Positions 1 through 16,180 of a stretch of DNA of 64,000 nucleotides are shown here, one piece after another. Origin of the DNA: Candidatus Bathyarchaeia archaeon (GTDB lineage: Archaea; Thermoproteota; Bathyarchaeia; Bathyarchaeales; Bathycorpusculaceae); the NCBI GenBank assembly GCA_050015395.1, contig JBEKBM010000008.1, positions 33,244-97,243 on the forward strand, given 5' to 3'. A program made the translations under genes and the position numbers. Numbering within the stretch: position 1 is the first letter of the stretch; each line of letters begins with the position of its first letter. Below the pieces are notes generated by a model, which saw nothing but the letters and a program-made list of their open reading frames with translations, did not search any database and was not told the DNA's origin.

Positions 1-2
1 AA

Positions 3-1259
3 GTTAATGCTTCTTTCAATCGAGAATTAACACAGCAAAGCAATCTGCTGGAAAAATTTTATGGTTTACACCCTGAGGTTCCAATGAGCGATTGGCTAAA
101 CTGGATTCTTTTAGCCGCAGACTCCTTCATAGTGGAGAATACCGCTGGCAGGAAAGCCGTCATTGCAGGGTACCACTGGTTTGAACCTTGGGGCAGAGAC
201 ACGTTCATTTCATTGCCTGGCCTTATGCTGGTTACTGGCAGATTTAGCGATGCAAAGGAAATACTTCAAAATTACATTCAATACAGCCGAAATGGGCTTA
301 TTCCAAATTTTGTAGCCGATAAGTCGGGTGAGCCCGCCTACAACACTGTTGACGCCACACTTTGGTATGTTAACGCTGTGCTTCAATACCTAAAATACAC
401 TGGGGACTCCGCGTTTGTTCAAGAAAAGCTTTGGGAAAATCTCCAGGCAATAATTGATTATCATGAGCGGGGCACTTTATCTGGTATTCGTTTAGATTAC
501 GACGGCCTACTAATGCACGGTTCAAGGCTAACGTGGATGGATGCAGCAGTAGGCGGCAAAGAGATTACGCCAAGAGTTGGAAAAGCAGTGGAAATCCAAG
601 CTTTATGGTACAATACACTGCGAATCATGCAGTTGCTGGCCAACAACTTCGGTGAGAAAGCTTTGGCTGAAAAATACGCTGTGATGGCAGATAAAACCAG
701 CAAAAGCTTTAACGAAAAATTCTGGAGCACCAACGCAGGTTGCCTCTTTGACGTTCTGGATGCTAATGGCGCTGATGCATCGCTTCGTCCCAACCAGATT
801 TTCGCTGTCTCACTGGATTTTATCATGCTGGATAAAGACAAGAGCGCGCAAGTTGTCAACTTGGTGAATCGTGAGCTGGTAACACCTTATGGCTTGCGTA
901 CTTTAGCGTTAAGTGACCCAAAGTTTGTCGGTAAATGCTTTGGCGATAGTCTAAGCAGAGACACCTCTTACCATAACGGGACAATTTGGCCTTGGCTACT
1001 GGGGCCATTCATAACGGCATATTTGAAAATTAACAGCTACAGCACCCAGTCACGCGAGTATGCAATGAAAAATCTTGTTTTACCCTTATTCAGCAGCGGA
1101 ATCAACCAAGCAGGATTAGGCACATTAAGCGAAATATACGACTGTGACTCACCAAACACGCCGAGGGGTTGCATCTCGCAAGCATGGAGCGTTGCCGAGC
1201 CCCTGCGAGCCTACATAGAAGACGTACTGATGGTCAAACCAAGATTTCAGTCTACTTAG
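3..1259 (+). CDS. Archaeal glycogen debranching enzyme / amylo-alpha-1,6-glucosidase, C-terminal part (5' end outside window)
   Basis: AGYHWF.WGRDTFISLPGL, LTWMDA, YHNGTIWPWL and QAWSVAE motifs; frame is open from position 3. Confidence 0.9.
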   Translation, partial: VNASFNRELTQQSNLLEKFYGLHPEVPMSDWLNWILLAADSFIVENTAGRKAVIAGYHWFEPWGRDTFISLPGLMLVTGRFSDAKEILQNYIQYSRNGLIPNFVADKSGEPAYNTVDATLWYVNAVLQYLKYTGDSAFVQEKLWENLQAIIDYHERGTLSGIRLDYDGLLMHGSRLTWMDAAVGGKEITPRVGKAVEIQALWYNTLRIMQLLANNFGEKALAEKYAVMADKTSKSFNEKFWSTNAGCLFDVLDANGADASLRPNQIFAVSLDFIMLDKDKSAQVVNLVNRELVTPYGLRTLALSDPKFVGKCFGDSLSRDTSYHNGTIWPWLLGPFITAYLKINSYSTQSREYAMKNLVLPLFSSGINQAGLGTLSEIYDCDSPNTPRGCISQAWSVAEPLRAYIEDVLMVKPRFQST

Positions 1260-1619
1260 TTTTTGGCTTTTTTCTAAGCATTTTTGTGGCCGGATTTTGT
1301 CACAAATATTAGGGTTATCCCTATCGGTCAAAGCCAAACATGTGCCTGCTACCGCCTACCCCTAAGAGGTCAAAATATATACGATTTTTAGATACGTTTG
1401 TATATACACTTATTGAGCGTAGACAGAAGCTGCGCACTTCCAACATAAAAACATGTTTATTCATGCACATTTTCGCGCAATTAACCTGTTTATAGTTTAA
1501 ATAAGGTCAGATCAACGCTGAAGAAAATAATTTTAAAGTGGCTTTTTTGAAGTAAATGATTATGCTTACACCATTAGTAAATTACATGAGGTAAAGGCAG
1601 TTAGGATTGAGGCCTATCA

Positions 1620-1657
1620 GTTTCGCTATAAGCGAAATTATTTAAAATAGAGCGAAA
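1620..1657. repeat. Left copy of a 38-bp inverted repeat; contains palindrome TTTCGCT-ATA-AGCGAAA
   Basis: Reverse complement matches 2351-2388 at 31/38 positions by manual alignment. Confidence 0.85.
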
Positions 1658-1659
1658 GT

Positions 1660-2337
1660 TTAAAGCGTGTGTTTTTGACTCTGCCGAGAACTCCACTCCT
1701 TCTCAAGTTTTTCAAGCAGGGCGTCAGCAGCTTCTTCTCCTCGAGCTGGATAGTTAAAGAGGTCCACGTACAGCTGCACTTTACTAACGACGATAACTTG
1801 ACCTACTTCAGTAAAGCCGTAAAAAACTCCTTCATCATATGGCAAAACCATTGATACATTTCCTCCTTTTTCAGTTGGTCTCAAGTCCAACTGGTTAGCT
1901 ATATTCACAGCTTTGTCCCTTTCTTTGATGTAGAAGTGGATAGTCGTCGGTCTCACATATGGCGCAATAAGATTAGCACCAGCTAAGGCAGTGAGAGCAT
2001 ATTCTGCGCTGCTTAACCTCTGCATCTTTGAAGTGAAAACTTCAATATCTCTCTCAAAAGTATGATAATTCAAGAAAGTGTTCATAGAAGTATAGTTGTT
2101 AAATGCAGCCCACCTTTGCAAAAGTTTCACCGGATCTGACACAATTAGCCTGTATCGCTCATTTCTATCAACATGCCCTTGATCGATTAGCGACATGACA
2201 GTGGCGTGAGTAAAACCCAGAGAAACCTTTGCCTCTTTTGATAAGTCCTCGATGGTCCAGCCTTTGAAAGGATCAATAAGGAGAACTCGTAATACGCGGG
2301 AGGCTTTAGGTGAAAAAATGTTCTGTGTTTTTCTCAT
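1660..2337 (-). CDS. Type IV toxin-antitoxin AbiEi-like antitoxin / wHTH regulator (AbiEi_2 family)
   Basis: N-terminal HTH (WTIEDLSKEAKVSLG), YALT..AGA, C-terminal VSKVQLYVDL....RGEEAA. Confidence 0.8.
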   Translation of the reverse strand: MRKTQNIFSPKASRVLRVLLIDPFKGWTIEDLSKEAKVSLGFTHATVMSLIDQGHVDRNERYRLIVSDPVKLLQRWAAFNNYTSMNTFLNYHTFERDIEVFTSKMQRLSSAEYALTALAGANLIAPYVRPTTIHFYIKERDKAVNIANQLDLRPTEKGGNVSMVLPYDEGVFYGFTEVGQVIVVSKVQLYVDLFNYPARGEEAADALLEKLEKEWSSRQSQKHTL

Positions 2338-2350
2338 GTGAGAAAAGTAG

Positions 2351-2388
2351 TTTCGCTCTCATTTATATAGTTTCGCTAATGACGAAAC
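2351..2388. promoter_or_regulatory. Right copy of the 38-bp inverted repeat; holds the TATA box (TATATAAA on - strand) of the antitoxin gene and palindrome GTTTCG-N7-CGAAAC
   Basis: Seen in sequence; TATA lies about 25-32 nt upstream of the ATG at 2337. Confidence 0.8.
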
Positions 2389-2459
2389 AAAACCTAAACT
2401 ATAAAAACAGTTCAGAAAGTAATAATGTTCCAACCTCAAATACTTACAGGTGACTATGC

Positions 2460-3257
2460 TTGTATGATAGGAACCAGACTGAAGTTTCTAAGGGTGCGCT
2501 CGTTGAGCTGGCTCTAGCACTGGGACTTTACAAGGATGACGCAGTTTTAGTAGGTGGATGGACACCCTATTTCTTAAGTCAAGGTTATTTTGAGCATTGT
2601 GGCTCTATTGATATAGACTTGGTTCTGCGTCCTTCCATTATGGCTCGATACGAGTCGATTCGGGATATCGTGCTGAGTCTTGGTTATGAACCCACGAAAA
2701 ACCCTTTCCGGTTACGACGTGAACTTATATCTCTTAACGGAGCACCCTTTCATATTGATCTTGATTTTCTTACAGAGCCAGAAGCAAGAAGTCAATTGGA
2801 AGACCTGATAGAAGTTCAAGAAGGATTACAGGCGGTTTTCATTCCTGGTTGCAGCATAGTATTTACCTATAACTATCTGGAAACGGTCAGAGGGGTTTTG
2901 CCTGCGGGCGGAGAGGGCGTTGCCAACATTAAGACCTCTGATATCGTTGGAACATTAACGATGAAAGGTCTTGCATTGGGCCGTCCACGAAAGTTGGCGA
3001 AGGATAGCTACGACATATACGCGGTGGCTGGTTTCCATGGGGGAGATCCTTACAAAGCTGCCTCTTTCTTCAAGCAACTGGTCGAAACGCTAGGCAATAA
3101 CGTTAAACCTCAAGTTACAGATATAGCCCTTAAGAAGATCAGAGATGGTTTCGCTTCGCCCAACCATTATGCAGCTCAAGCAGTTTCACGCTTCGTTGAG
3201 GAAGACGTCTCAACAGACGCATCAGAAAGAGTCTCAGCATTCATTTCCAAAATTTAG
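2460..3257 (+). CDS. AbiEii-like nucleotidyltransferase (type IV TA toxin partner)
   Basis: VLVGGW..Y and GSIDIDL nucleotidyltransferase motif, KDSYDIY; adjacent to AbiEi-like gene; TTG start. Confidence 0.75.
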   Translation: MYDRNQTEVSKGALVELALALGLYKDDAVLVGGWTPYFLSQGYFEHCGSIDIDLVLRPSIMARYESIRDIVLSLGYEPTKNPFRLRRELISLNGAPFHIDLDFLTEPEARSQLEDLIEVQEGLQAVFIPGCSIVFTYNYLETVRGVLPAGGEGVANIKTSDIVGTLTMKGLALGRPRKLAKDSYDIYAVAGFHGGDPYKAASFFKQLVETLGNNVKPQVTDIALKKIRDGFASPNHYAAQAVSRFVEEDVSTDASERVSAFISKI

Positions 3258-3275
3258 ACGAAACGCGGCAAAAAA

Positions 3276-4316
3276 CTAGGGTTTTATTGCTTTTCTGAGG
3301 CTTTCAGCGGCGGTTTCTGGCGTGATTGTGTTTATGTATGTTCCTGTGCTTAACTCGAAGCCTGCCCAAATTGACAGTTTAGGGTAGACTTCCAAGTGCC
3401 AATGGTAATAGTCTTGTGCCTCTTGGTTTATGGCTAAGTGAAAACCGTAATTGTACGGTGGATCATTCACTAAATCCTTTAAGCCTTTGAGGCTTGCTTT
3501 GAGAGTTTTAGCGAACGCTGACACTTCAGCATCATCCAAGTCAAGGATGTTGACGGCATGTTTTCTAGGCATAATCCAGAACTCCATTGGGTTTATGCTT
3601 GCGTAAGGAGCGAAGCCAATAAAATCTGAATCTTCGCAAATAAGCCTTGGACCTTTTGATTCTTGCTCGATTATGTCACAGAAAACGCACTTGCCGTGTT
3701 CGCCGTAGAATGCTTTACTTGCATCCATCTCTTCTTGGATTATTACAGGAATGATTGGTGTCGCGATTACTTGACTATGCGCATGAGAAAGCGACGCACC
3801 TGCTAGCTGCCCATAGTTCCTAAAAATTGAGACAGATTTGACGTATGGTTTTGCGCTTAACTCTCTGAGCCTATCAATGTACGCATGGATGACCCGTTCC
3901 AACTGGGGCAGTTGGGCGTCAGCTGGGTCCTCATCATGATTTGGAGATTCAATTATAATCTCATGATGTCCAACCGCGTAGCCAAAACATTCGTTCTTTA
4001 AGATTTCGGCTTCATCTTCTGGTTGTTTGGGTGGACTGAACGCTGGGTAAAGGTTTGGGATGCAACGGACAAGCCAGTTTTTTGGGCGTTCGCCAACCAG
4101 CGGGTCTTTAGCCTTTTTTATTTCGCCATTCTCTTTCAAGTATAGCATTAAGGCTGGCGGCGTCATGTTCTCGTTGCCAACACACATCGGACAAATCCCG
4201 CTTTGGGCAGTTTCAGTTTTTTGTTTGGCAAAATCGGTGGGTCTTCGGCTTCGTTCTGTCGCAATAACGACCCAGCGGTCCAGTAAGTAATCTTTCCTTA
4301 ATTCATTGTAGGGCAT
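3276..4316 (-). CDS. galT: Galactose-1-phosphate uridylyltransferase (HIT superfamily)
   Basis: ELRKD....WV.IA.ER..RP, CPMC.GNE, GASLSHAHSQ (HxHxQ), YHWHLE. Confidence 0.9.
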   Translation of the reverse strand: MPYNELRKDYLLDRWVVIATERSRRPTDFAKQKTETAQSGICPMCVGNENMTPPALMLYLKENGEIKKAKDPLVGERPKNWLVRCIPNLYPAFSPPKQPEDEAEILKNECFGYAVGHHEIIIESPNHDEDPADAQLPQLERVIHAYIDRLRELSAKPYVKSVSIFRNYGQLAGASLSHAHSQVIATPIIPVIIQEEMDASKAFYGEHGKCVFCDIIEQESKGPRLICEDSDFIGFAPYASINPMEFWIMPRKHAVNILDLDDAEVSAFAKTLKASLKGLKDLVNDPPYNYGFHLAINQEAQDYYHWHLEVYPKLSIWAGFELSTGTYINTITPETAAESLRKAIKP

Positions 4317-4535
4317 ATGTTAAGCACTCTGACAAACAAAGGTACTGACGCATTTTAGCATGACAAGAGATTTGATATTGAAATTTAATTCCATTACTAA
4401 GGTGACTTGTCATCAATGTTAGCCCTTTTTCCTTTTCTAATCATAGCTTCTTAGAATAAATCTTTTACTGAGTAGGTCTAACGTCTTTCTTTACTATGAT
4501 AGCTAACTTATAGTTTTCTTGCTAATAGCCAGCAT

Positions 4536-5237
4536 TTAATATTCTTCATAATCGTATGAAAAAAGTGAAGTCTCAACTGTGAAGGGATTTTTATAGTTAA
4601 TGCCGTATTGCCGTTGAGGATAAATCTCTTGACCATCGAACATGTCATTGAATGTCTGAGTAAAGGATGTGCCTTGTTGATATTTTGGCTCAATCAAACG
4701 ATATTTAAATAATCTATTTTTAGCTGGTTTATGAATGACATTAAGCAGAAATGCACCAGCGAGAGCATCTCTGACATTCTTTAGATTCGCTTTTTTGAGA
4801 TTACTACTTACATTATGCTTTATGTCATTATAGTAACCCCACCATTCAGGTATATTACTGCTAAAAGGTGTAAGAACTGTTCTTTCTGGTAGACCTTTAA
4901 ACGTAACTTTCTTAGAGCATAATCCGTATATCTCATCAAAAGCTCGTATGCCACTTACGATAATTCCACTCTTTTCCTCTGCTCTCTTTAGAATTTCTAC
5001 ACAAGAAGGTTTCTCAACAAATTCAGAATATCTCGCCATCTCTTTGAAAGCAGAATCAATGTGACTACCTATACTCAGGAAGAGATTAAGCAGTTTGAAA
5101 GAATACGTTTGTTCATTTCCATCTAAGTAAGGAACATATTCAAGGAAGCTGTCAAATTGTCGTTCTATGTCTTTGTAATACTCCCAATAACCACCATTTT
5201 CAAAAGTAGGATTAAATCGCTTTTCTTCTTCTGTCAT
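4536..5237 (-). CDS. Hypothetical AT-rich accessory protein
   Basis: 233-aa ORF; contains WW..YN.IKH motif; preceded by repeat copy 1. Confidence 0.7.
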   Translation of the reverse strand: MTEEEKRFNPTFENGGYWEYYKDIERQFDSFLEYVPYLDGNEQTYSFKLLNLFLSIGSHIDSAFKEMARYSEFVEKPSCVEILKRAEEKSGIIVSGIRAFDEIYGLCSKKVTFKGLPERTVLTPFSSNIPEWWGYYNDIKHNVSSNLKKANLKNVRDALAGAFLLNVIHKPAKNRLFKYRLIEPKYQQGTSFTQTFNDMFDGQEIYPQRQYGINYKNPFTVETSLFSYDYEEY

Positions 5238-5248
5238 ATTAAGGTTTA

Positions 5249-5278
5249 TTCTACGCTATTCAGATTTAAGACTTATCT
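5249..5278 (-). repeat. Promoter-like repeat, copy 1 (+ strand TTCTACGCTATTCAGATTTAAGACTTATCT)
   Basis: Near-identical copies at 5654-5681 and 5873-5901; each lies just upstream of a minus-strand ORF. Confidence 0.85.
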
Positions 5279-5293
5279 CTCTAAGTTTCCAGC

Positions 5294-5331
5294 TTACCGA
5301 GACCATTATAGCGCCTTAATGTGCTCTGTAA
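5294..5331. repeat. Imperfect hairpin A (TTACCGAGACCATTA-N8-TAATGTGCTCTGTAA), flanked by 9-bp direct repeats CTAAGTTTC (5281-5289, 5338-5346)
   Basis: 12/15 arm complementarity; direct repeats read from sequence. Confidence 0.7.
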
Positions 5332-5369
5332 ATATCGCTAAGTTTCTAACCCCTGAATGGTCGCAGTAA

Positions 5370-5416
5370 TTTACCGAGACCTTCTAAAGGACTATGGTCT
5401 AATGTACTCGGTAAAC
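5370..5416. repeat. Imperfect hairpin B (TTTACCGAG...CTCGGTAAA), related to hairpin A
   Basis: Perfect 9-bp outer arms; shares TTACCGAGACC and TAATGTRCTC with hairpin A. Confidence 0.7.
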
Positions 5417-5428
5417 TTAGCTAAAATA

Positions 5429-5629
5429 CTAAGCTCTTTTCTCACCAAGTTTCTGTTTTTCATCAAGTTTCTTTTTATTAGCTTCTCTTCTATTAGCTAC
5501 GAAAATACCCCATTGTTTTTTATTGTAAAGAGCTTTACATGGGTTACTATGAAAGAGCTTATTTTCATCGTAAGTCTCAAAGACTATTCCGCATGGACAT
5601 TTTCTAATAATGATTGTGTCGGATAACAG
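5429..5629 (-). CDS. Small putative Zn-finger protein (CPCG...HS..C), about 66 aa, apparent CTG start
   Basis: Manual translation LSDTIIIRKCPCGIVFETYDENKLFHSNPCKALYNKKQW...EKRA*; downstream of repeat copy 2; no ATG/GTG/TTG start. Confidence 0.5.
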   Translation of the reverse strand: MLSDTIIIRKCPCGIVFETYDENKLFHSNPCKALYNKKQWGIFVANRREANKKKLDEKQKLGEKRA

Positions 5630-5653
5630 CTTCTATTCCCCGTCTAACTCTAT

Positions 5654-5681
5654 TTCTACGCTATGCAGATTTAAGACTTAT
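5654..5681 (-). repeat. Promoter-like repeat, copy 2
   Basis: TTCTACGCTATGCAGATTTAAGACTTAT. Confidence 0.85.
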
Positions 5682-5687
5682 TCTTGC

Positions 5688-5852
5688 TTATTGTTGCACT
5701 TTGAGTACATCTACAGCATAAATAACGAAACCAACCGCAATCACAATTATGCCGAGATACAAATCTAATTGGTAAGCGAGCAAGCGCGCTGTTAACAAGA
5801 CTATTAGTCCAACCACCGCTAAAGCCATTCCGACCAAACGAGTTACATTCAT
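5688..5852 (-). CDS. Small two-TM membrane protein, 54 aa
   Basis: MNVTRLVGMALAVVGLIVLLTARLLAYQLDLYLGIIVIAVGFVIYAVDVLKVQQ*; GGTGA RBS; downstream of repeat copy 3. Confidence 0.65.
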   Translation of the reverse strand: MNVTRLVGMALAVVGLIVLLTARLLAYQLDLYLGIIVIAVGFVIYAVDVLKVQQ

Positions 5853-5872
5853 GCTTTCACCCTATTTTTCTA

Positions 5873-5901
5873 TTCTGCCCTATGCGATTTAAGACTTATC
5901 T
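5873..5901 (-). repeat. Promoter-like repeat, copy 3
   Basis: TTCTGCCCTATGC-GATTTAAGACTTATCT. Confidence 0.8.
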
Positions 5902-6057
5902 TTATGTCAGACAAGCCAGAGAGAATGTGTTCCCATTGCACCTCCCTCTGACTTGTTTATCTGACTGGGTAATTGCCAGAAAGATAGTTGCCACAACTTT
6001 CTATCAAAGCCGAAAGCAACTAGCAAATAAGCCTTCTAATGTACTCTGGAAAACTTG

Positions 6058-6096
6058 ACTACGTACATTCAAAAACTATACCTTAATGTATGTAGT
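6058..6096. repeat. Imperfect hairpin D (ACTACGTACATT...AATGTATGTAGT); related arm TAATGTACTCTGGAAA at about 6037-6052
   Basis: 11/12 arm match; shares the CTTAATGT core with hairpin A. Confidence 0.6.
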
Positions 6097-6402
6097 ATTA
6101 AAACTTCTCTAAGTTTATCTTACTTTCCAGTTTTAGCATAGTTGCCTATCAATCAAGCTTTTTGGATACACCATTAGATTAAATTGGCAAGCACATGAAT
6201 AGAAAATCGTTTGGAAAAGATAAGTCAAAAGAAGAAGCGCCTGAATAAATCGCTGCTACAGGTTTTGCACTATTTTAATTTGATATTTGAACGAACACTA
6301 TTCAGGGATTGCTCTAATTTTGTTCTGAATTTGTTTTATTCGTTTTATAACCAGATTCAGGACACGTTATAAAATATAAACTTAGCAGGAGAGAAAGTAA
6401 AA

Positions 6403-6504
6403 ATGCAAATTGCTAAAAGTAAAACTGTAGCTTTTGCGATTGCTATGGTCTTAATGTTTTCAGTGGCAGCTTCAATGATGCTTGTACCAACTGCTGGTGT
6501 TTAA
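6403..6504 (+). pseudogene. Orphan signal-peptide stub (33 aa) of a truncated secreted/surface protein
   Basis: MQIAKSKTVAFAIAMVLMFSVAASMMLVPTAGV*; AGGAG upstream; stop falls right at the predicted cleavage region. Confidence 0.55.
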
Positions 6505-6538
6505 CGAAACACTACATGTTCTTTAGAAGAATTCAAAG

Positions 6539-6892
6539 ATGGATAAATCAAGTTCAAGATTGCGTTTAATTCAGTTTAAGGCAGGATTAAACAAGTGGCG
6601 AATAGTTTTTTTGGTTTTTGCGTTATCCTACGCCGTTTTGCTCGTGCTGAATCTTTCTAATGTGCCGATGCAATGGGGTGAGGTTGTCCAGCTGAATGGT
6701 GCATCATTTTTAAAATGGGGACTATATGGCCAGTTTGTTAATGGCGCATTCTATCCACCACTTTTTGATTCCATCGCAATGATTTTCTTTAATTTATTTG
6801 GATTAAGCTTGGTTTCAGGTAGTCTAGTTTCAGTTGTTTTTTCTATTCTGATAATCAAAGCTCCAATTACCCGAATCTTACGAAATGGATAA
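6539..6892 (+). pseudogene. Truncated ArnT/PMT-like (GT-C) glycosyltransferase, N-terminal fragment
   Basis: First TM, MQW(G)E and FYPPLFD motifs, then ends abruptly in the next gene. Confidence 0.6.
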
Positions 6893-8264
6893 AACGGGTA
6901 TATACATGCTTGACAAGCATAGCATAAAAAAACTACTTAGTGAAAATTACCCCTTGTTAAGCATTCTACTTGGGATTGTGCTGATTTCTGCTTCAATAGG
7001 TCCTTACCAAAACGGGGATACGCAATGGGAATACGAAGCTGCAACTGGAGTAATCAAGTGGGGCATGCCTTATGTGTCAAGTTGGGGCAACATTATGAAT
7101 CAGCCACCATTAGGCTTTTACATTGAAGCACTGTTCTTCAAAGCCTTCGGCTTATCAATCGACACGGGTGTAGTCCTAGTAACTTTGTTTGGGCTTGGAT
7201 GCGCTGTCTTGGTATACAAAATTGGCAAGGTTTTGTATAGTAAGACAACAGGATTGGTGGCAGCTGTGCTTTTTGGTTTGACACCATGGGAACTTATCCT
7301 TTCAAGAAGCTTCTTCATTGACGTGCAGTGCCTATTCTTGAGCCTGCTTTGTCTATTTATAGGAATCATTGCTATTCGCAAAGGTTCGTTTAAGCTTTTT
7401 ATGGTGACAGGGGCTCTTTTTGCCGCTGCTTTTCTGACAAAGTTATTTGCCGTTTATATATTGATTCCACTGCTGTTGTTCTATGTTTATTATCGACCGA
7501 AGAAGCTAAGACAAACATTTAGCTGGTTTGGAGCGTTTTTTTTACCTGTGCTAATATTTTCTTTTTTGTGGTATCAAGTAATTTCAGGGCAAGGGTTGCT
7601 TTCTGTTTTTTATCAGAGCGATCTCGTGAACCGTAATTCCAGCGGGGTTGTTCCTTCGTTCTTTTTTGTTTTCAATTTTCTTGTAAATTATGGGTTGGGC
7701 TGGTTTTTCATAGATGCAGCAATCTTATCTTTGCTCGTTTGCTTAATGTACAGAAAATTTCGAAAGTTACTTGTTTTTGATTTGATTTGCTTGGCAACCA
7801 TATTATCTGTTGTAAGCGTCAACACTTTTTTGGGGGCTGTTCTTAATCTTAATTCGCCTTATCTTAACGCTATTAAGTATGATTACCAGTCCTTGCCTTT
7901 CTTTAGTTTGTTAGCAGCGTCATTGGTGAGCAAAGCCCTTTCACTGTTTAATTCTTTAAAATCAAGGGGAAAACTAAAGAAGCTGCTCTTCTTTTTTGTC
8001 GCTTTGGGCGGGCTGGGCTTAGTGACGGCGTCAATATTTTACAACATGTATTATGTGCATCAATTTTCACCCTCAGATTTTTTGCTGTTCAGAGTGGCGA
8101 TGGGCAAAAATGTGGGTTATTCTCTTTTTAACCCCAATCCAATTGGCAAATATAGCCTTCTAATGGGTATTCAATATTTGGGATTCGCAATTGTGCTGTC
8201 AGGACTTATGTGGGCAAGTAGACATGAACTTGTCGGGCTGCTAAAGTTTAGGAAGAATAATTGA
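6885..8264 (+). CDS. ArnT/PMT-family (GT39/GT83-like) membrane glycosyltransferase
   Basis: GDTQWE, NQPPLGFY, SR.F.ID, AFLTK; about 12 TM segments. Confidence 0.85.
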   Translation: MDKTGIYMLDKHSIKKLLSENYPLLSILLGIVLISASIGPYQNGDTQWEYEAATGVIKWGMPYVSSWGNIMNQPPLGFYIEALFFKAFGLSIDTGVVLVTLFGLGCAVLVYKIGKVLYSKTTGLVAAVLFGLTPWELILSRSFFIDVQCLFLSLLCLFIGIIAIRKGSFKLFMVTGALFAAAFLTKLFAVYILIPLLLFYVYYRPKKLRQTFSWFGAFFLPVLIFSFLWYQVISGQGLLSVFYQSDLVNRNSSGVVPSFFFVFNFLVNYGLGWFFIDAAILSLLVCLMYRKFRKLLVFDLICLATILSVVSVNTFLGAVLNLNSPYLNAIKYDYQSLPFFSLLAASLVSKALSLFNSLKSRGKLKKLLFFFVALGGLGLVTASIFYNMYYVHQFSPSDFLLFRVAMGKNVGYSLFNPNPIGKYSLLMGIQYLGFAIVLSGLMWASRHELVGLLKFRKNN

Positions 8265-8584
8265 TTAGTCTTTTCATAATTAACGATTGCATAATAATTA
8301 TTACTATATTTCTTGGGCTCTGAAATTTGCAGCTCCAAAACTCAACTCCAAATTGACTAATAAAGAAATTAGCCCAAAATCAACAGCGGACAACAGCCCT
8401 AAGAAGGAAGCAATCTTCCATTAAATAGGGGGGCTATAAACAAAAAAGAGCCTATAGCTCAAAGCCTTGGGCAACATTATTTTCTTTATCTTTAAGGATG
8501 AAAGCTTAAGTATTGAGGGTAAAAGCATATATCTGTTGACCTGTCCTTGTTATTTTTCAACTTTAAGGCGAACTAGGCGGAAAT

Positions 8585-9490
8585 ATGGCGTTAGCGGATA
8601 AAATCCTAAAGCTCAAGAAAGAAAAGAAAGCTGTGATATTAGCTCATAATTACCAAAGACCAGAAATCCAGAACATAGCTGACTACGTCGGCGACAGCAT
8701 TGAACTGAGCCGCAAAGCGGTTGAGGAAAAAGATGCTGAAATGATTGTTTTCTCAGCTGTAGATTTCATGGCTGAATCAGCAGCGATTCTCAATCCAGAA
8801 AAGAAAGTTCTTTTGCCCTGTTTAGGCGCACGTTGTCCAATGGCGCAGATGCTTACGGTTGATGAGATAAAACGTGCTAAAGCCCAATACCCAAAGGCTC
8901 CAGTAGTGCTGTACGTGAACACTTTGGCTGTGTGCAAAGCCAACTGCGACGTTTGCTGCACCAGCGCCAATGCTGTGGAAGTCATAAAATCTCTCGACGC
9001 AGACACGATTCTGTTTGGTCCAGACCGTAATCTAGCCGAGTACGTTTCTGAGAAAACGGGTAAAACGTTGATTCCGATTCCTGAATGGGGATTTTGCCCA
9101 ACGCACCTGCTTTTCCAGCCTGAAGATGTAATGGTCCTAAAGATGCAGCATCCAGACGCGACTGTTATGGTTCATCCTGAATGTAGCTCTGAAATGCGCA
9201 AAGTAGCTGATTACGTTGGCAGCACCTCAAAGATGTGCCGTTACGCAAAAGAATCCAGCGCCAAAGACTTCATAGTTGGAACTGAAGAAGGTATTCTGCA
9301 CCGCCTGCGGAAAGAGAACCCTGAGAAAAACTTTTACTTGGCGTATGAAGATGCAATATGCCCAAACATGAAGTTGACAACGCTTGATCGCCTGTATATT
9401 GCGTTGAAAGAGGAGAAGAATGTGGTTAAGGTTCCGGAGGCAGTTGCGAAGAAGGCTCGTGCTTCACTTGAGAGGATGTTTGAGGTTTAA
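8585..9490 (+). CDS. nadA: Quinolinate synthase
   Basis: ILAHNYQ, CPMA, CCTSANA, HPEC, GSTS, CPNMK. Confidence 0.97.
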   Translation: MALADKILKLKKEKKAVILAHNYQRPEIQNIADYVGDSIELSRKAVEEKDAEMIVFSAVDFMAESAAILNPEKKVLLPCLGARCPMAQMLTVDEIKRAKAQYPKAPVVLYVNTLAVCKANCDVCCTSANAVEVIKSLDADTILFGPDRNLAEYVSEKTGKTLIPIPEWGFCPTHLLFQPEDVMVLKMQHPDATVMVHPECSSEMRKVADYVGSTSKMCRYAKESSAKDFIVGTEEGILHRLRKENPEKNFYLAYEDAICPNMKLTTLDRLYIALKEEKNVVKVPEAVAKKARASLERMFEV

Positions 9491-15116: not shown

Positions 15117-15590
15117 TTATTCTGAAGAAGCTAAAGCTCCCAGAAGAATTATCCCGAGCCCTAGGAGTAATAAACCGCCAATAGAATCTCTCTTTTCTTT
15201 CTCAATTTTAAGCTGATTAAGGTATTGCGCAGTACGTTCGTAACTAAGCCTAGGATTATCTCTGTCGAATACGATAAATGCCTTTTGGGCTAAAAATTGA
15301 GGTATGTTGGAGCCCTTTTCAACAAACGGAAGCACTATTTTATTTAGTGCCACAGCCATGCCTAATTCATAGTTCACGTTCTCCAACCGAGAACCACCTT
15401 TTCCCATTATTGCCAATAGACAATCACTAGTCTGAATCTGGTTTCTTACAAATTGTTCATAGGGTAAGCTCATTGCCTCATTATTGGGAGACAATACTGA
15501 TATAATGCCATATCGCTCAAGATTATTTTTCAATTCATTAGCAACTGTGCTGTCTAAAACACTCGAAGAGATAAAAACCTTAAAAGTCAT
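15117..15590 (-). CDS. TIR-domain protein with C-terminal transmembrane tail
   Basis: VFISSS, NVNYELGMA (catalytic-position E), terminal GGLLLLGLGIILLGALAS. Confidence 0.8.
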   Translation of the reverse strand: MTFKVFISSSVLDSTVANELKNNLERYGIISVLSPNNEAMSLPYEQFVRNQIQTSDCLLAIMGKGGSRLENVNYELGMAVALNKIVLPFVEKGSNIPQFLAQKAFIVFDRDNPRLSYERTAQYLNQLKIEKEKRDSIGGLLLLGLGIILLGALASSE

Positions 15591-16180
15591 TTTTTAGCCT
15601 CGTATTTTTTTCCGAACTTTTCATTTAATTTCAAAGAAGCAACAACAGTAATTATAATCGCTTGTGCGGATGAACTGAGCGACATTGCACTTAATTTTGA
15701 AAATACCTCTTGTACGGTTTCCATTGGATTCTGTTTAAGTTCAACATAGCGGGCAGTTTCAATAAGCCCTTTTATTCTTATGTTCCCCTTTCTCAATGGT
15801 ATGACTGGTACGCCTTTACCAAGCGCATATCCTATTTCTTGATTAACCCAAGGGCTGGTTCTAGAATTCTGCGTAAATATAACAAGGAATAATTCACTAT
15901 TATCAATGGCGTTCTTTACTTGATCAGGAAGAAAACTACCCAAAGGTGCATCCCTATCGGCAAAGAAATTTTGGACGCGTAATGTTTCAAATATTTCGCA
16001 GAGGTCCTGCACGTACAACCCTGTGTCCTTTGTACTATGAGAAATAAAGAAAACGTATTTCTTTATGCTACTCTTTTCCTCATTCACCAAGTTCATTGAG
16101 AGCCACTTAGTATATTGATATGCACTAAGTCTATTCAAAAGGCTATCGCTTGGTTTATTACGCTTTTGATTTTCAGACAC
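15587..16180 (-). CDS. TIR-domain protein (TIR_2-like)
   Basis: FFISHSTKD, AIDNSELFLVIFT.NS..SPWVNQEIGYA; stop overlaps the next start (ATGA). Confidence 0.88.
   Translation of the reverse strand: MSENQKRNKPSDSLLNRLSAYQYTKWLSMNLVNEEKSSIKKYVFFISHSTKDTGLYVQDLCEIFETLRVQNFFADRDAPLGSFLPDQVKNAIDNSELFLVIFTQNSRTSPWVNQEIGYALGKGVPVIPLRKGNIRIKGLIETARYVELKQNPMETVQEVFSKLSAMSLSSSAQAIIITVVASLKLNEKFGKKYEAKK

Follow-up and report, generated by a model that had tools for sequence, protein, structure and literature searches.

Inverted copies of a candidate operator module on either side of the antitoxin gene in a divergent AbiE-like cassette of a bathyarchaeal genome

Why is an antitoxin gene that faces away from its toxin gene enclosed between two inverted copies of one short sequence? 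The question is raised by a locus in a 64,000-nucleotide (nt) stretch of contig JBEKBM010000008.1 from a Candidatus Bathyarchaeia archaeon; this whole stretch is called the window. The locus consists of an AbiE-like antitoxin gene, a divergent toxin gene, and the two repeat copies, termed here the distal module M1 and the proximal module M2. A first-pass annotation had proposed an invertible phase switch and, alternatively, had read M1 as an antisense promoter or as a second operator for DNA looping. We consider it somewhat better than even, at a probability of roughly 0.55 for the reading as a whole, that an antitoxin-toxin operon was inverted long ago to give this locus, the inversion now being fixed, and that M1 is a distal second operator acting with M2. 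The principal features are as follows (window positions and strand).

1620-1657, plus strand: distal module M1, GTTTCGC-TATAA-GCGAAA-TTATTTAAAATAGA-GCGAAA, pointing into the antitoxin gene from its 3' side
1639-1646, plus strand: TATA-like core TATTTAAA of M1, spaced as in M2; if used, predicted start near 1671 on the plus strand
1660-2337, minus strand: antitoxin gene, 225 amino acids (aa), predicted N-terminal winged helix and AbiEi_2 C-terminal domain
2351-2388, minus strand: proximal module M2, read on the minus strand as GTTTCGT-CATTA-GCGAAA-CTATATAAATGAGA-GCGAAA, then 13 nt, then the antitoxin ATG
2460-3257, plus strand: toxin gene, 265 aa, TTG start, DUF1814/AbiEii-like nucleotidyltransferase

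Two inverted modules and the gene pair of the locus

A repeat search returned 1620-1657 and 2351-2388 as inverted arms of 38 nt that are 82% complementary and 693 nt apart, and a direct count from the sequence gave matches at 31 of 38 positions, as the first-pass annotation had reported. The runner-up inverted pair within 1300-3400 measured 27 nt at 70%. M1 ends 2 nt from the antitoxin stop codon and M2 ends 13 nt from its ATG; the close enclosure of the antitoxin open reading frame (ORF) noted earlier agrees with these coordinates. Each copy, read in its own orientation, has the form TTTCG(C/T)-N5-GCGAAA-N14-GCGAAA, that is, a palindrome followed by a third, direct half-site. The N14 segment contains TATTTAAA in the left copy and TATATAAA in the right copy, and this A/T-rich, TATA-like 8-mer starts one base past the middle half-site in both; the earlier description of three half-sites around a TATA-like core is borne out by the sequence. 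The half-site centres are spaced 11 and 20 bp, hence all three lie on the same side of the helix.

The strict palindrome TTTCGC-N4-7-GCGAAA occurred once in the 64-kb window compared to 0.02 occurrences expected, and in the 2.59-Mb genome the palindrome and the third half-site were found together at M1 and M2 only. The half-site hexamer alone occurred 0.8 times per kb genome-wide. A scan with a degenerate pattern yielded two matches versus 0 expected, a control that is circular because the pattern was built from M1 and M2 themselves.

The closest loci belong to Bathyarchaeia (Candidatus Bathyarchaeota) archaea; the host being archaeal, archaeal promoter rules apply. These rules include a purine-rich transcription factor B recognition element (BRE) upstream of the TATA box. 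In M2 the TATA box TATATAAA begins 32 nt upstream of the antitoxin ATG, within the 30-32 nt before the start codon, and is preceded at a distance of one base by the purine-rich, BRE-like GCGAAA. Genome-wide, TATA-like 8-mers showed a small local peak at -32/-31 from the ATG, with 9 and 14 of 1373 upstream regions; nearby positions gave 1 to 5 per 1373 in this crude count. The TATA position of M2 matches this peak, which implies a leaderless antitoxin mRNA, and M2 would be the BRE/TATA promoter from which this mRNA is made. The half-sites of M2 occupy the BRE position and the interval between TATA box and start, a layout that should be the form expected of an autorepressor's operator. The repeats thus lie on both sides of a TATA box that is placed as expected relative to the ATG, they covary with the recognition helix (see below), and repression at this locus is predicted from the sequence.

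The antitoxin matched the Pfam family AbiEi_2 (PF09952) over residues 68-210 with 46.6 bits (cut-off 21, E 5.6e-12), as did all 44 of 44 aligned antitoxin relatives. An AlphaFold2 model reached a mean predicted local distance difference test score (pLDDT) of 92.8. Its residues ~5-80 align to winged helices of MarR, SmtB and CRP with Z of 6.5-7.7 (7-7.7 for the MarR/SmtB type) and a root-mean-square deviation of 1.5-3 Å over 60-79 residues; furthermore, HTH_IclR was matched by 12 and MarR_2 by 10 of the 44 relatives. Judged by this model, the N-terminus is a winged helix. The prediction of a two-copy antitoxin complex scored 0.00, which gives no verdict and counts neither for nor against. A sequence search of solved structures gave no match for the antitoxin and one chance-level row for the toxin, Foldseek against the PDB returned nothing at E ≤0.001, and neither protein was recognised by NCBIfam or PADLOC. 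Additionally, the model of the C-terminal domain (residues ~95-221, window 1675-2055, minus strand) aligns to the nucleotidyltransferase folds of ANT(2'') (Z 7.7), MenT1 (7.1), tm1012 (7.1), MenT4 (7.0) and TglT (6.8); the domain may have a toxin-like fold, a Z near 7 not being decisive.

The toxin matched Pfam AbiEii (PF08843) marginally, with 24.5 bits at a cut-off of 22.5, and four of five aligned toxin relatives matched it as well. GGW, DID, K169 and KDSYD are invariant in the alignment of the relatives; we take these to be the four DUF1814 motifs. By family models and winged-helix fold the two genes are an AbiE-like pair, without the bicistronic order that defines AbiE.

Gene order and modules among the relatives

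Relatives were collected by orientation-blind searches, and their layouts were read from tblastn matches; species-representative genomes contributed 59 loci and metagenome contigs another 80, 139 in all. Their gene orders were:

Tandem, antitoxin then toxin: 119 of 139 loci
Divergent: 12 of 139 loci, 11 of them in one clade, plus L162
Other layout: 2 of 139 loci
No toxin match: 6 of 139 loci

An operon with the regulator gene first was found in these 119 relatives and was absent from the window and 11 further loci of its clade. That the tandem order is the usual one, as stated in the first-pass annotation, agrees with Dy et al. (2014; PMC3985639), a study that describes AbiE as bicistronic with the regulator gene first and the antitoxin as repressing its own promoter via inverted repeats.

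The divergent relatives of the clade, which are the closest to the window, are L031 (87%), L090-L097 (67-77%), L032 (73%) and L033 (59%). All 12 clade loci showing both genes, the window included, have the same divergent layout; they stem from different assemblies and share 59-100% protein identity. The intergenic gap is 119-124 nt, and 274 nt in L033. In a tree of 116 distinct antitoxins, built by a quick method with LG+G4, the divergent clade formed one branch of eight distinct rows with a support of 98 in the Shimodaira-Hasegawa-like approximate likelihood ratio test (SH-aLRT), nested in a 90-row, otherwise mostly tandem clade (L092 and L095 were left out as the match ran past the stop; L094 and L096 are duplicates). 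A paralogous pair on contig 23 of the same genome is also tandem. Since the divergent clade is monophyletic among tandem relatives, the divergent order is derived, of single origin, and fixed down to 59% identity.

Several loci deserve separate mention. The contig 23 paralogue (G000, locus L002 417-2166, minus strand) encodes a 338-aa antitoxin combining AbiEi_2 with a NucS_C-like endonuclease domain; its gene overlaps the toxin gene by 50 nt, and TGAACA-type repeats surround a TATA box upstream. Outside the clade, L071 carries a convergent pair (antitoxin 2501-3142, plus strand; toxin 3999-3193, minus strand) with two upstream modules, and in L141 and L162 the toxin match is on the other strand and is either far away or degraded. 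L114 (2217-2783) is apparently a decayed cassette, with an antitoxin match from residue 49, no toxin match in 2.2 kb upstream, and M1 intact past the antitoxin stop.

M2 is conserved in all clade loci. Among the clade loci in which this end is visible, M1 was present in 11 with ten distinct sequences, the window included (window, L031, L032, L090-L097, L114), where it lies 2-23 nt past the antitoxin stop; L033, the deepest and most distant member, has M2 only. In the M1 alignment the half-sites are invariant except for one C/T position (17 of 18 positions), and the core reads TATTTAA(A/G) with its first seven bases invariant. Bases differ between loci in the spacer of the palindrome and in the latter part (second half) of N14, and the flank outside the module is unalignable. 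Judged by this pattern, M1 is under constraint. Within a locus M1 and M2 differ on average at 7.4 of 37 positions, compared to 4.8 among orthologous M1 and 3.8 among orthologous M2 copies, and one core position distinguishes all M1 from all M2. As the difference within a locus exceeds those between orthologues, the two modules evolve as separate lines and are not homogenised. Their distance is nearly constant at 727-730 nt.

The region between M2 and the toxin gene contains two further elements:

2394-2407, plus strand: putative toxin promoter, CTAAAC then TATAAAAA, 6 nt past the outer arm of the M2 palindrome
2449-2462, plus strand: Shine-Dalgarno-like GGTGA, then 6 nt, then the toxin TTG; GGTG and the start position are invariant

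Among nine clade sequences, the C-TAAAC and TAAAA columns are invariant and lie 5-8 nt past the M2 palindrome, the ~40 nt between this element and GGTG vary, and the (T/A)TG start follows GGTG by 6-7 nt. The toxin start is TTG in eight of the nine; it is ATG in L092 and also in L033. In tandem relatives the toxin starts with ATG, overlapping or abutting the antitoxin stop. These sequences suggest that the toxin gene has a TATA promoter of its own and a start codon led by a Shine-Dalgarno site, the promoter being near enough to the M2 palindrome for co-repression: with the palindrome only 6 nt from the toxin TATA element, bound antitoxin should repress both divergent promoters. One further half-site, ACGAAAC past the toxin stop (3258-3264), was not conserved in the genus relative G003 and was taken as chance.

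To see how widely the module occurs, it was sought de novo in 129 distinct loci as rcH-N4-6-H-N13-15-H, at most 400 nt upstream and with at most one mismatch. It was found in 86 of them, with the half-sites GCGAAA, GCGAAC, TTGAGC, TTGAAC, GTGAAC, GGGATA and GTGATA. Five doubtful calls (four TGCTCA, one GCATTT) are probably mis-registered or due to chance and were excluded from all arguments. At least two modules were present in 74 of the 86 loci when each locus was searched with its own half-site and up to two mismatches; some of the extra minus-strand calls with two mismatches may be palindromes read in reverse. Four layouts were observed:

Two direct upstream copies, 44-47 nt start to start: about 31 distinct loci
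One copy upstream and one 6-18 nt past, or overlapping, the toxin stop, in the same direction: 24 distinct loci
Two copies back to back: 8 distinct loci
One copy upstream and an inverted one past the antitoxin stop, all divergent: 9 distinct loci

In the back-to-back layout the second module has perfect half-sites around an ATGAAG-type core that is not TATA-like; the second modules after the toxin and those in tandem upstream keep TATA-like cores. Past the second module no conserved ORF or sequence was found in the after-toxin and back-to-back layouts, and on these grounds a role of second modules as promoters of a third gene was rejected. Second modules share intact half-sites and neither a gene nor always a TATA box; their common feature is hence a predicted binding site, not a promoter. 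Loci of the GCGAAC and TTGAAC classes (L034, L036, L052, L053, L098-L123, L137, L157, L163, L164, L169) have direct module copies flanking the whole operon, and the second copy starts at most 18 nt from the toxin stop, where sequence conservation ends.

Furthermore, in separate clades alike, the motif of the recognition helix changes together with the class of half-site. G(Y/F)xHAV occurs with GCGAA(A/C), G(L/M)x(H/Y)YV with TTGA(G/A)C, GHA(Y/H)(R/K)V with G(G/T)GATA, and GEAFKV with GTGAAC. This covariation points to the antitoxin as the reader of the half-sites.

Readings of the distal module

According to the reading that we favour, a horizontally mobile AbiEi_2/AbiEii (AbiE-like) cassette underwent an old inversion, which left its antitoxin gene facing away from the toxin gene. 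The starting order would have been M1, M2, antitoxin and toxin, all in one direction; inversion of the segment comprising M2 and the antitoxin gene would give M1 (forward), antitoxin and M2 (both reversed) and toxin (forward), and would set M1 against the antitoxin stop. At the junction the first codons of the toxin (MYDR) are kept, ATG is replaced by TTG, and the translational coupling of the tandem relatives is lost. M1 and M2 would be two copies of the antitoxin's operator module, each with three half-sites clamping a TATA-like core, and M1 would be the distal operator retained from an ancestral two-module design and bound by the antitoxin at the edge of the cassette. It may act together with M2 by looping of ~730 bp, and bound M1 may also block plus-strand transcription, which is antisense to the antitoxin gene and sense to the toxin gene. 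M1 is read as an operator because the second modules of all four layouts share intact half-sites only. The second-operator alternative named in the first-pass annotation hence gains support from the comparison with relatives. The nearest ORF beyond M1 points toward the cassette in four of six visible loci and away from it in two, which is uninformative on insulation against read-in.

Several points weigh against this reading. L033 lacks M1, so M1 is dispensable for the divergent layout and could be a later gain. In M1 a BRE-like GCGAAA precedes TATTTAAA with the geometry of M2, which fits a promoter equally well. The quick tree does not resolve the sister group of the clade, and the ancestral module layout is uncertain as a result. 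Because extant tandem modules lie 7-10 nt apart, ~60 of the 71 nt from M2 to the toxin start are left unexplained. The constant distance between M1 and M2 is that expected of an indel-free coding region and is uninformative on helical phasing, and common ancestry confounds the link between recognition helix and half-site. Finally, for all members of the family, binding by the antitoxin, looping and the block to transcription are predictions from sequence, as is the way in which the inversion came about.

The second reading of M1, possible and rather less probable, is that of an antitoxin-repressed antisense promoter that fires from ~1671 on the plus strand when the antitoxin drops. Convergent transcription would then yield an RNA antisense to the antitoxin mRNA, perhaps with read-through into the toxin gene, and would act as a self-reinforcing trigger. 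M1 is indeed arranged as M2 is, with the BRE-like GCGAAA, the TATA-like 8-mer one base on, and the third half-site; its core is invariant as TATTTAA(A/G) in ten sequences, its predicted start obeys the -32 geometry of the leaderless genes of this genome, and the after-toxin and tandem-upstream second modules keep TATA-like cores too. However, synonymous conservation at the antitoxin 3' end shows no excess (0.63 in the last 15 codons versus 0.59 overall), and no antisense ORF is conserved, the best ones in nine loci ranging from 4 to 61 aa with shifting starts. Runs of at least five T on the antisense strand occur in seven of nine loci, some of them 3-21 nt from the predicted start; with 0-4 runs per locus they do not tell whether transcription from M1 would reach the toxin gene. 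Moreover, a promoter role is not the function that second modules share, since the cores of the back-to-back modules are non-TATA and the after-toxin modules face unconserved DNA. The absence of a product, the absence of synonymous constraint and the T-runs do not favour an antisense promoter. Two candidate products were rejected: an antisense protein from the 61-aa ORF 1669-1854 at the predicted M1 start, whose start is absent in G003, and a functional RNA overlapping the antitoxin 3' end, which showed neither excess synonymous conservation nor an Rfam match.

Somewhat more doubtful still is the full toggle that such a promoter would allow, in which the antitoxin would repress two facing promoters, M2 in sense and M1 in antisense toward the toxin gene. 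If it were real, a drop in antitoxin would start antisense transcription that lowers the antitoxin further and feeds the toxin gene, a convergent-promoter trigger that is not known from any toxin-antitoxin system. In broader terms, two antitoxin-binding modules would define the archaeal AbiEi_2 cassettes, and one and the same circuit would be retuned by where these modules are placed: in tandem, back to back, around the operon or around the antitoxin gene.

A further possibility is that M1 is a functionless leftover of the inversion, a former distal upstream module. The inversion model places M1 at its position for free, and L033 does without it, but M1 has retained its core and all but one of the 18 half-site positions in loci at 64-77% protein identity, next to an unalignable outer flank, and it moves with the cassette to new genomic sites. 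We regard a relic as improbable.

Least probable of all is a role of the repeats as recombination sites, either flipping the antitoxin segment in phase variation or serving as the ends of an excising and inserting element. The repeats do bracket the antitoxin gene exactly, and flipping this segment would bring back the common gene order. Moreover, the cassette has modules at its ends both in the window and in the after-toxin layout, this layout and the one with two upstream modules can be interpreted as circular permutations of each other, and record titles show the cassette in several archaeal phyla. However, all 12 of 12 clade loci show one orientation, M1 and M2 are not homogenised (7.4 differences within a locus versus 4.8 and 3.8 between orthologues), and the two arms share no perfectly identical stretch of more than 9 nt. 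The comparison of orientation in homologous loci, proposed by the first-pass annotation as a check on its switch, thus returned a fixed divergent layout with no flipped copy among near relatives, and the switch is not upheld. The cassette itself encodes two genes only and no recombinase. Pfam detected no recombinase in nine of the ten ORFs of at least 110 aa downstream of the cassette to 16180, the tenth (6539-6892) being unscanned; in the genome there was no Resolvase-family hit, and the nearest Phage_integrase hit (C8:3339-3860) lies ~31 kb off.

Relation to known systems and genomic setting

The AbiE system of Streptococcus agalactiae (abiEi-abiEii), a type IV toxin-antitoxin and abortive-infection system, resembles the cassette in its two-domain antitoxin with an N-terminal winged helix and its DUF1814 nucleotidyltransferase toxin; its antitoxin represses its own promoter through inverted repeats that overlap promoter elements (PMC3985639, PMC7319586), as is predicted for the cassette. 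That system has a bicistronic operon with a 4-nt gene overlap, and its bacterial promoter contains two 23-bp repeats 3 bp apart. By contrast, the bathyarchaeal pair has an AbiEi_2 rather than a COG5340 antitoxin, divergent genes, a 37-nt module of three half-sites around an archaeal TATA box, and a second module past the antitoxin stop. By analogy, the closest regulatory parallel is the Rv2827c promoter of Mycobacterium tuberculosis. According to Beck et al. (2020; PMC7319586), the AbiEi-like antitoxin binds there to inverted repeats that form two pairs in tandem; with its several operator sets Rv2827c-Rv2826c resembles the tandem upstream modules of the TTGAGC class. Both mycobacterial sets lie upstream within 131 bp in a tandem operon, whereas in the window ~730 bp separate the two sets, which are inverted and enclose the gene of the regulator itself. 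A literature search, supplements not covered, found no description of archaeal AbiEi_2 antitoxin operators or of divergent AbiE pairs.

Looping repressors that use a main operator at the promoter and a copy hundreds of bp away, inside the coding region or past it, are well known from lac O1/O2/O3, gal OE/OI and lambda OL-OR; in the present case the host is archaeal and looping is a prediction. The archaeal repressors Lrs14, MDR1, TrmB and Phr bind over the BRE/TATA region or the start site. As with these, the half-sites here flank the TATA box and overlap the BRE, and binding should exclude TATA-binding protein and transcription factor B (TBP/TFB) or the polymerase; unlike these, the regulator is an antitoxin and the module is duplicated in a mobile two-gene cassette. 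In the invertons fimS, hin/gin and those of Bacteroides, short inverted repeats bracket a segment whose flipping changes the pairing of promoter and gene. The present locus differs from them in that no recombinase was found near it, 12 related loci show no second orientation, and the repeats hold transcription-factor half-sites and a TATA box instead of a recombinase core.

The cassette is best filed as a variant of the autoregulated AbiE type in which the gene order has been rearranged and a second, candidate operator adjoins the regulator gene at its 3' end. AbiE has been studied as bicistronic, autoregulated bacterial operons, and the archaeal clade presents divergent genes and an extra candidate operator past the regulator's stop. 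The family offers a compact natural series for archaeal repressor control of BRE/TATA promoters and for operator placement versus toxin/antitoxin balance. The analysis also removes a candidate phase-variation switch, the more striking claim.

The cassette and the insertion that contains it have the following extents, with no strand assigned:

1615-3258: whole cassette, M1, antitoxin gene, M2, toxin promoter and toxin gene; the sole part of window 1-9000 that aligns to G003
1260-3275: insertion, relative to genus relatives, between convergent glycogen-debranching and GalT-like genes

The alignment to G003 (87.5% over 1646 nt) reaches the outer edge of M1 on one side and the stop codon of the toxin gene on the other, and ends there. 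In G003 the cassette occupies another chromosomal site, between ORFs that by their translations encode an ITPase-like protein and ribosomal protein S15, with Kae1-like and Bud32-like proteins also encoded in the flanks. The occurrence at different sites with a boundary at the edge of M1 indicates a mobile unit of which M1 is part; record titles place the cassette in several archaeal phyla.

The debranching and GalT-like flanking matches are 23 bp apart in G003, G004 and G026 versus 2031 bp in the window, and the same place holds other inserts of ~3-6 kb in G019, G016, G070 and G036. This gap is an insertion hot spot in the genus, measuring 23-27 bp in several genomes (G009 was also among those compared). 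The part of the insert outside the cassette contains, at window 1276-1490, three short sub-elements that recur at 17 other sites of the same genome, on 16 other contigs and contig 8. The copies are 77-93% identical over lengths of 30-131 nt and may represent miniature mobile elements or repeats dispersed between genes. A search of window 1-6500 against Rfam, taken to an E of 1, gave no match, and no tRNA was found in window 1-8000. A 233-aa ORF adjoining the GalT-like gene (4536-5237, minus strand) had no Pfam match at E up to 0.1. Further downstream, two adjacent ORFs of 157 and 197 aa (15117-16180, minus strand) both match TIR-domain families, one of them also ThsB_TIR, and may be a defence gene pair.

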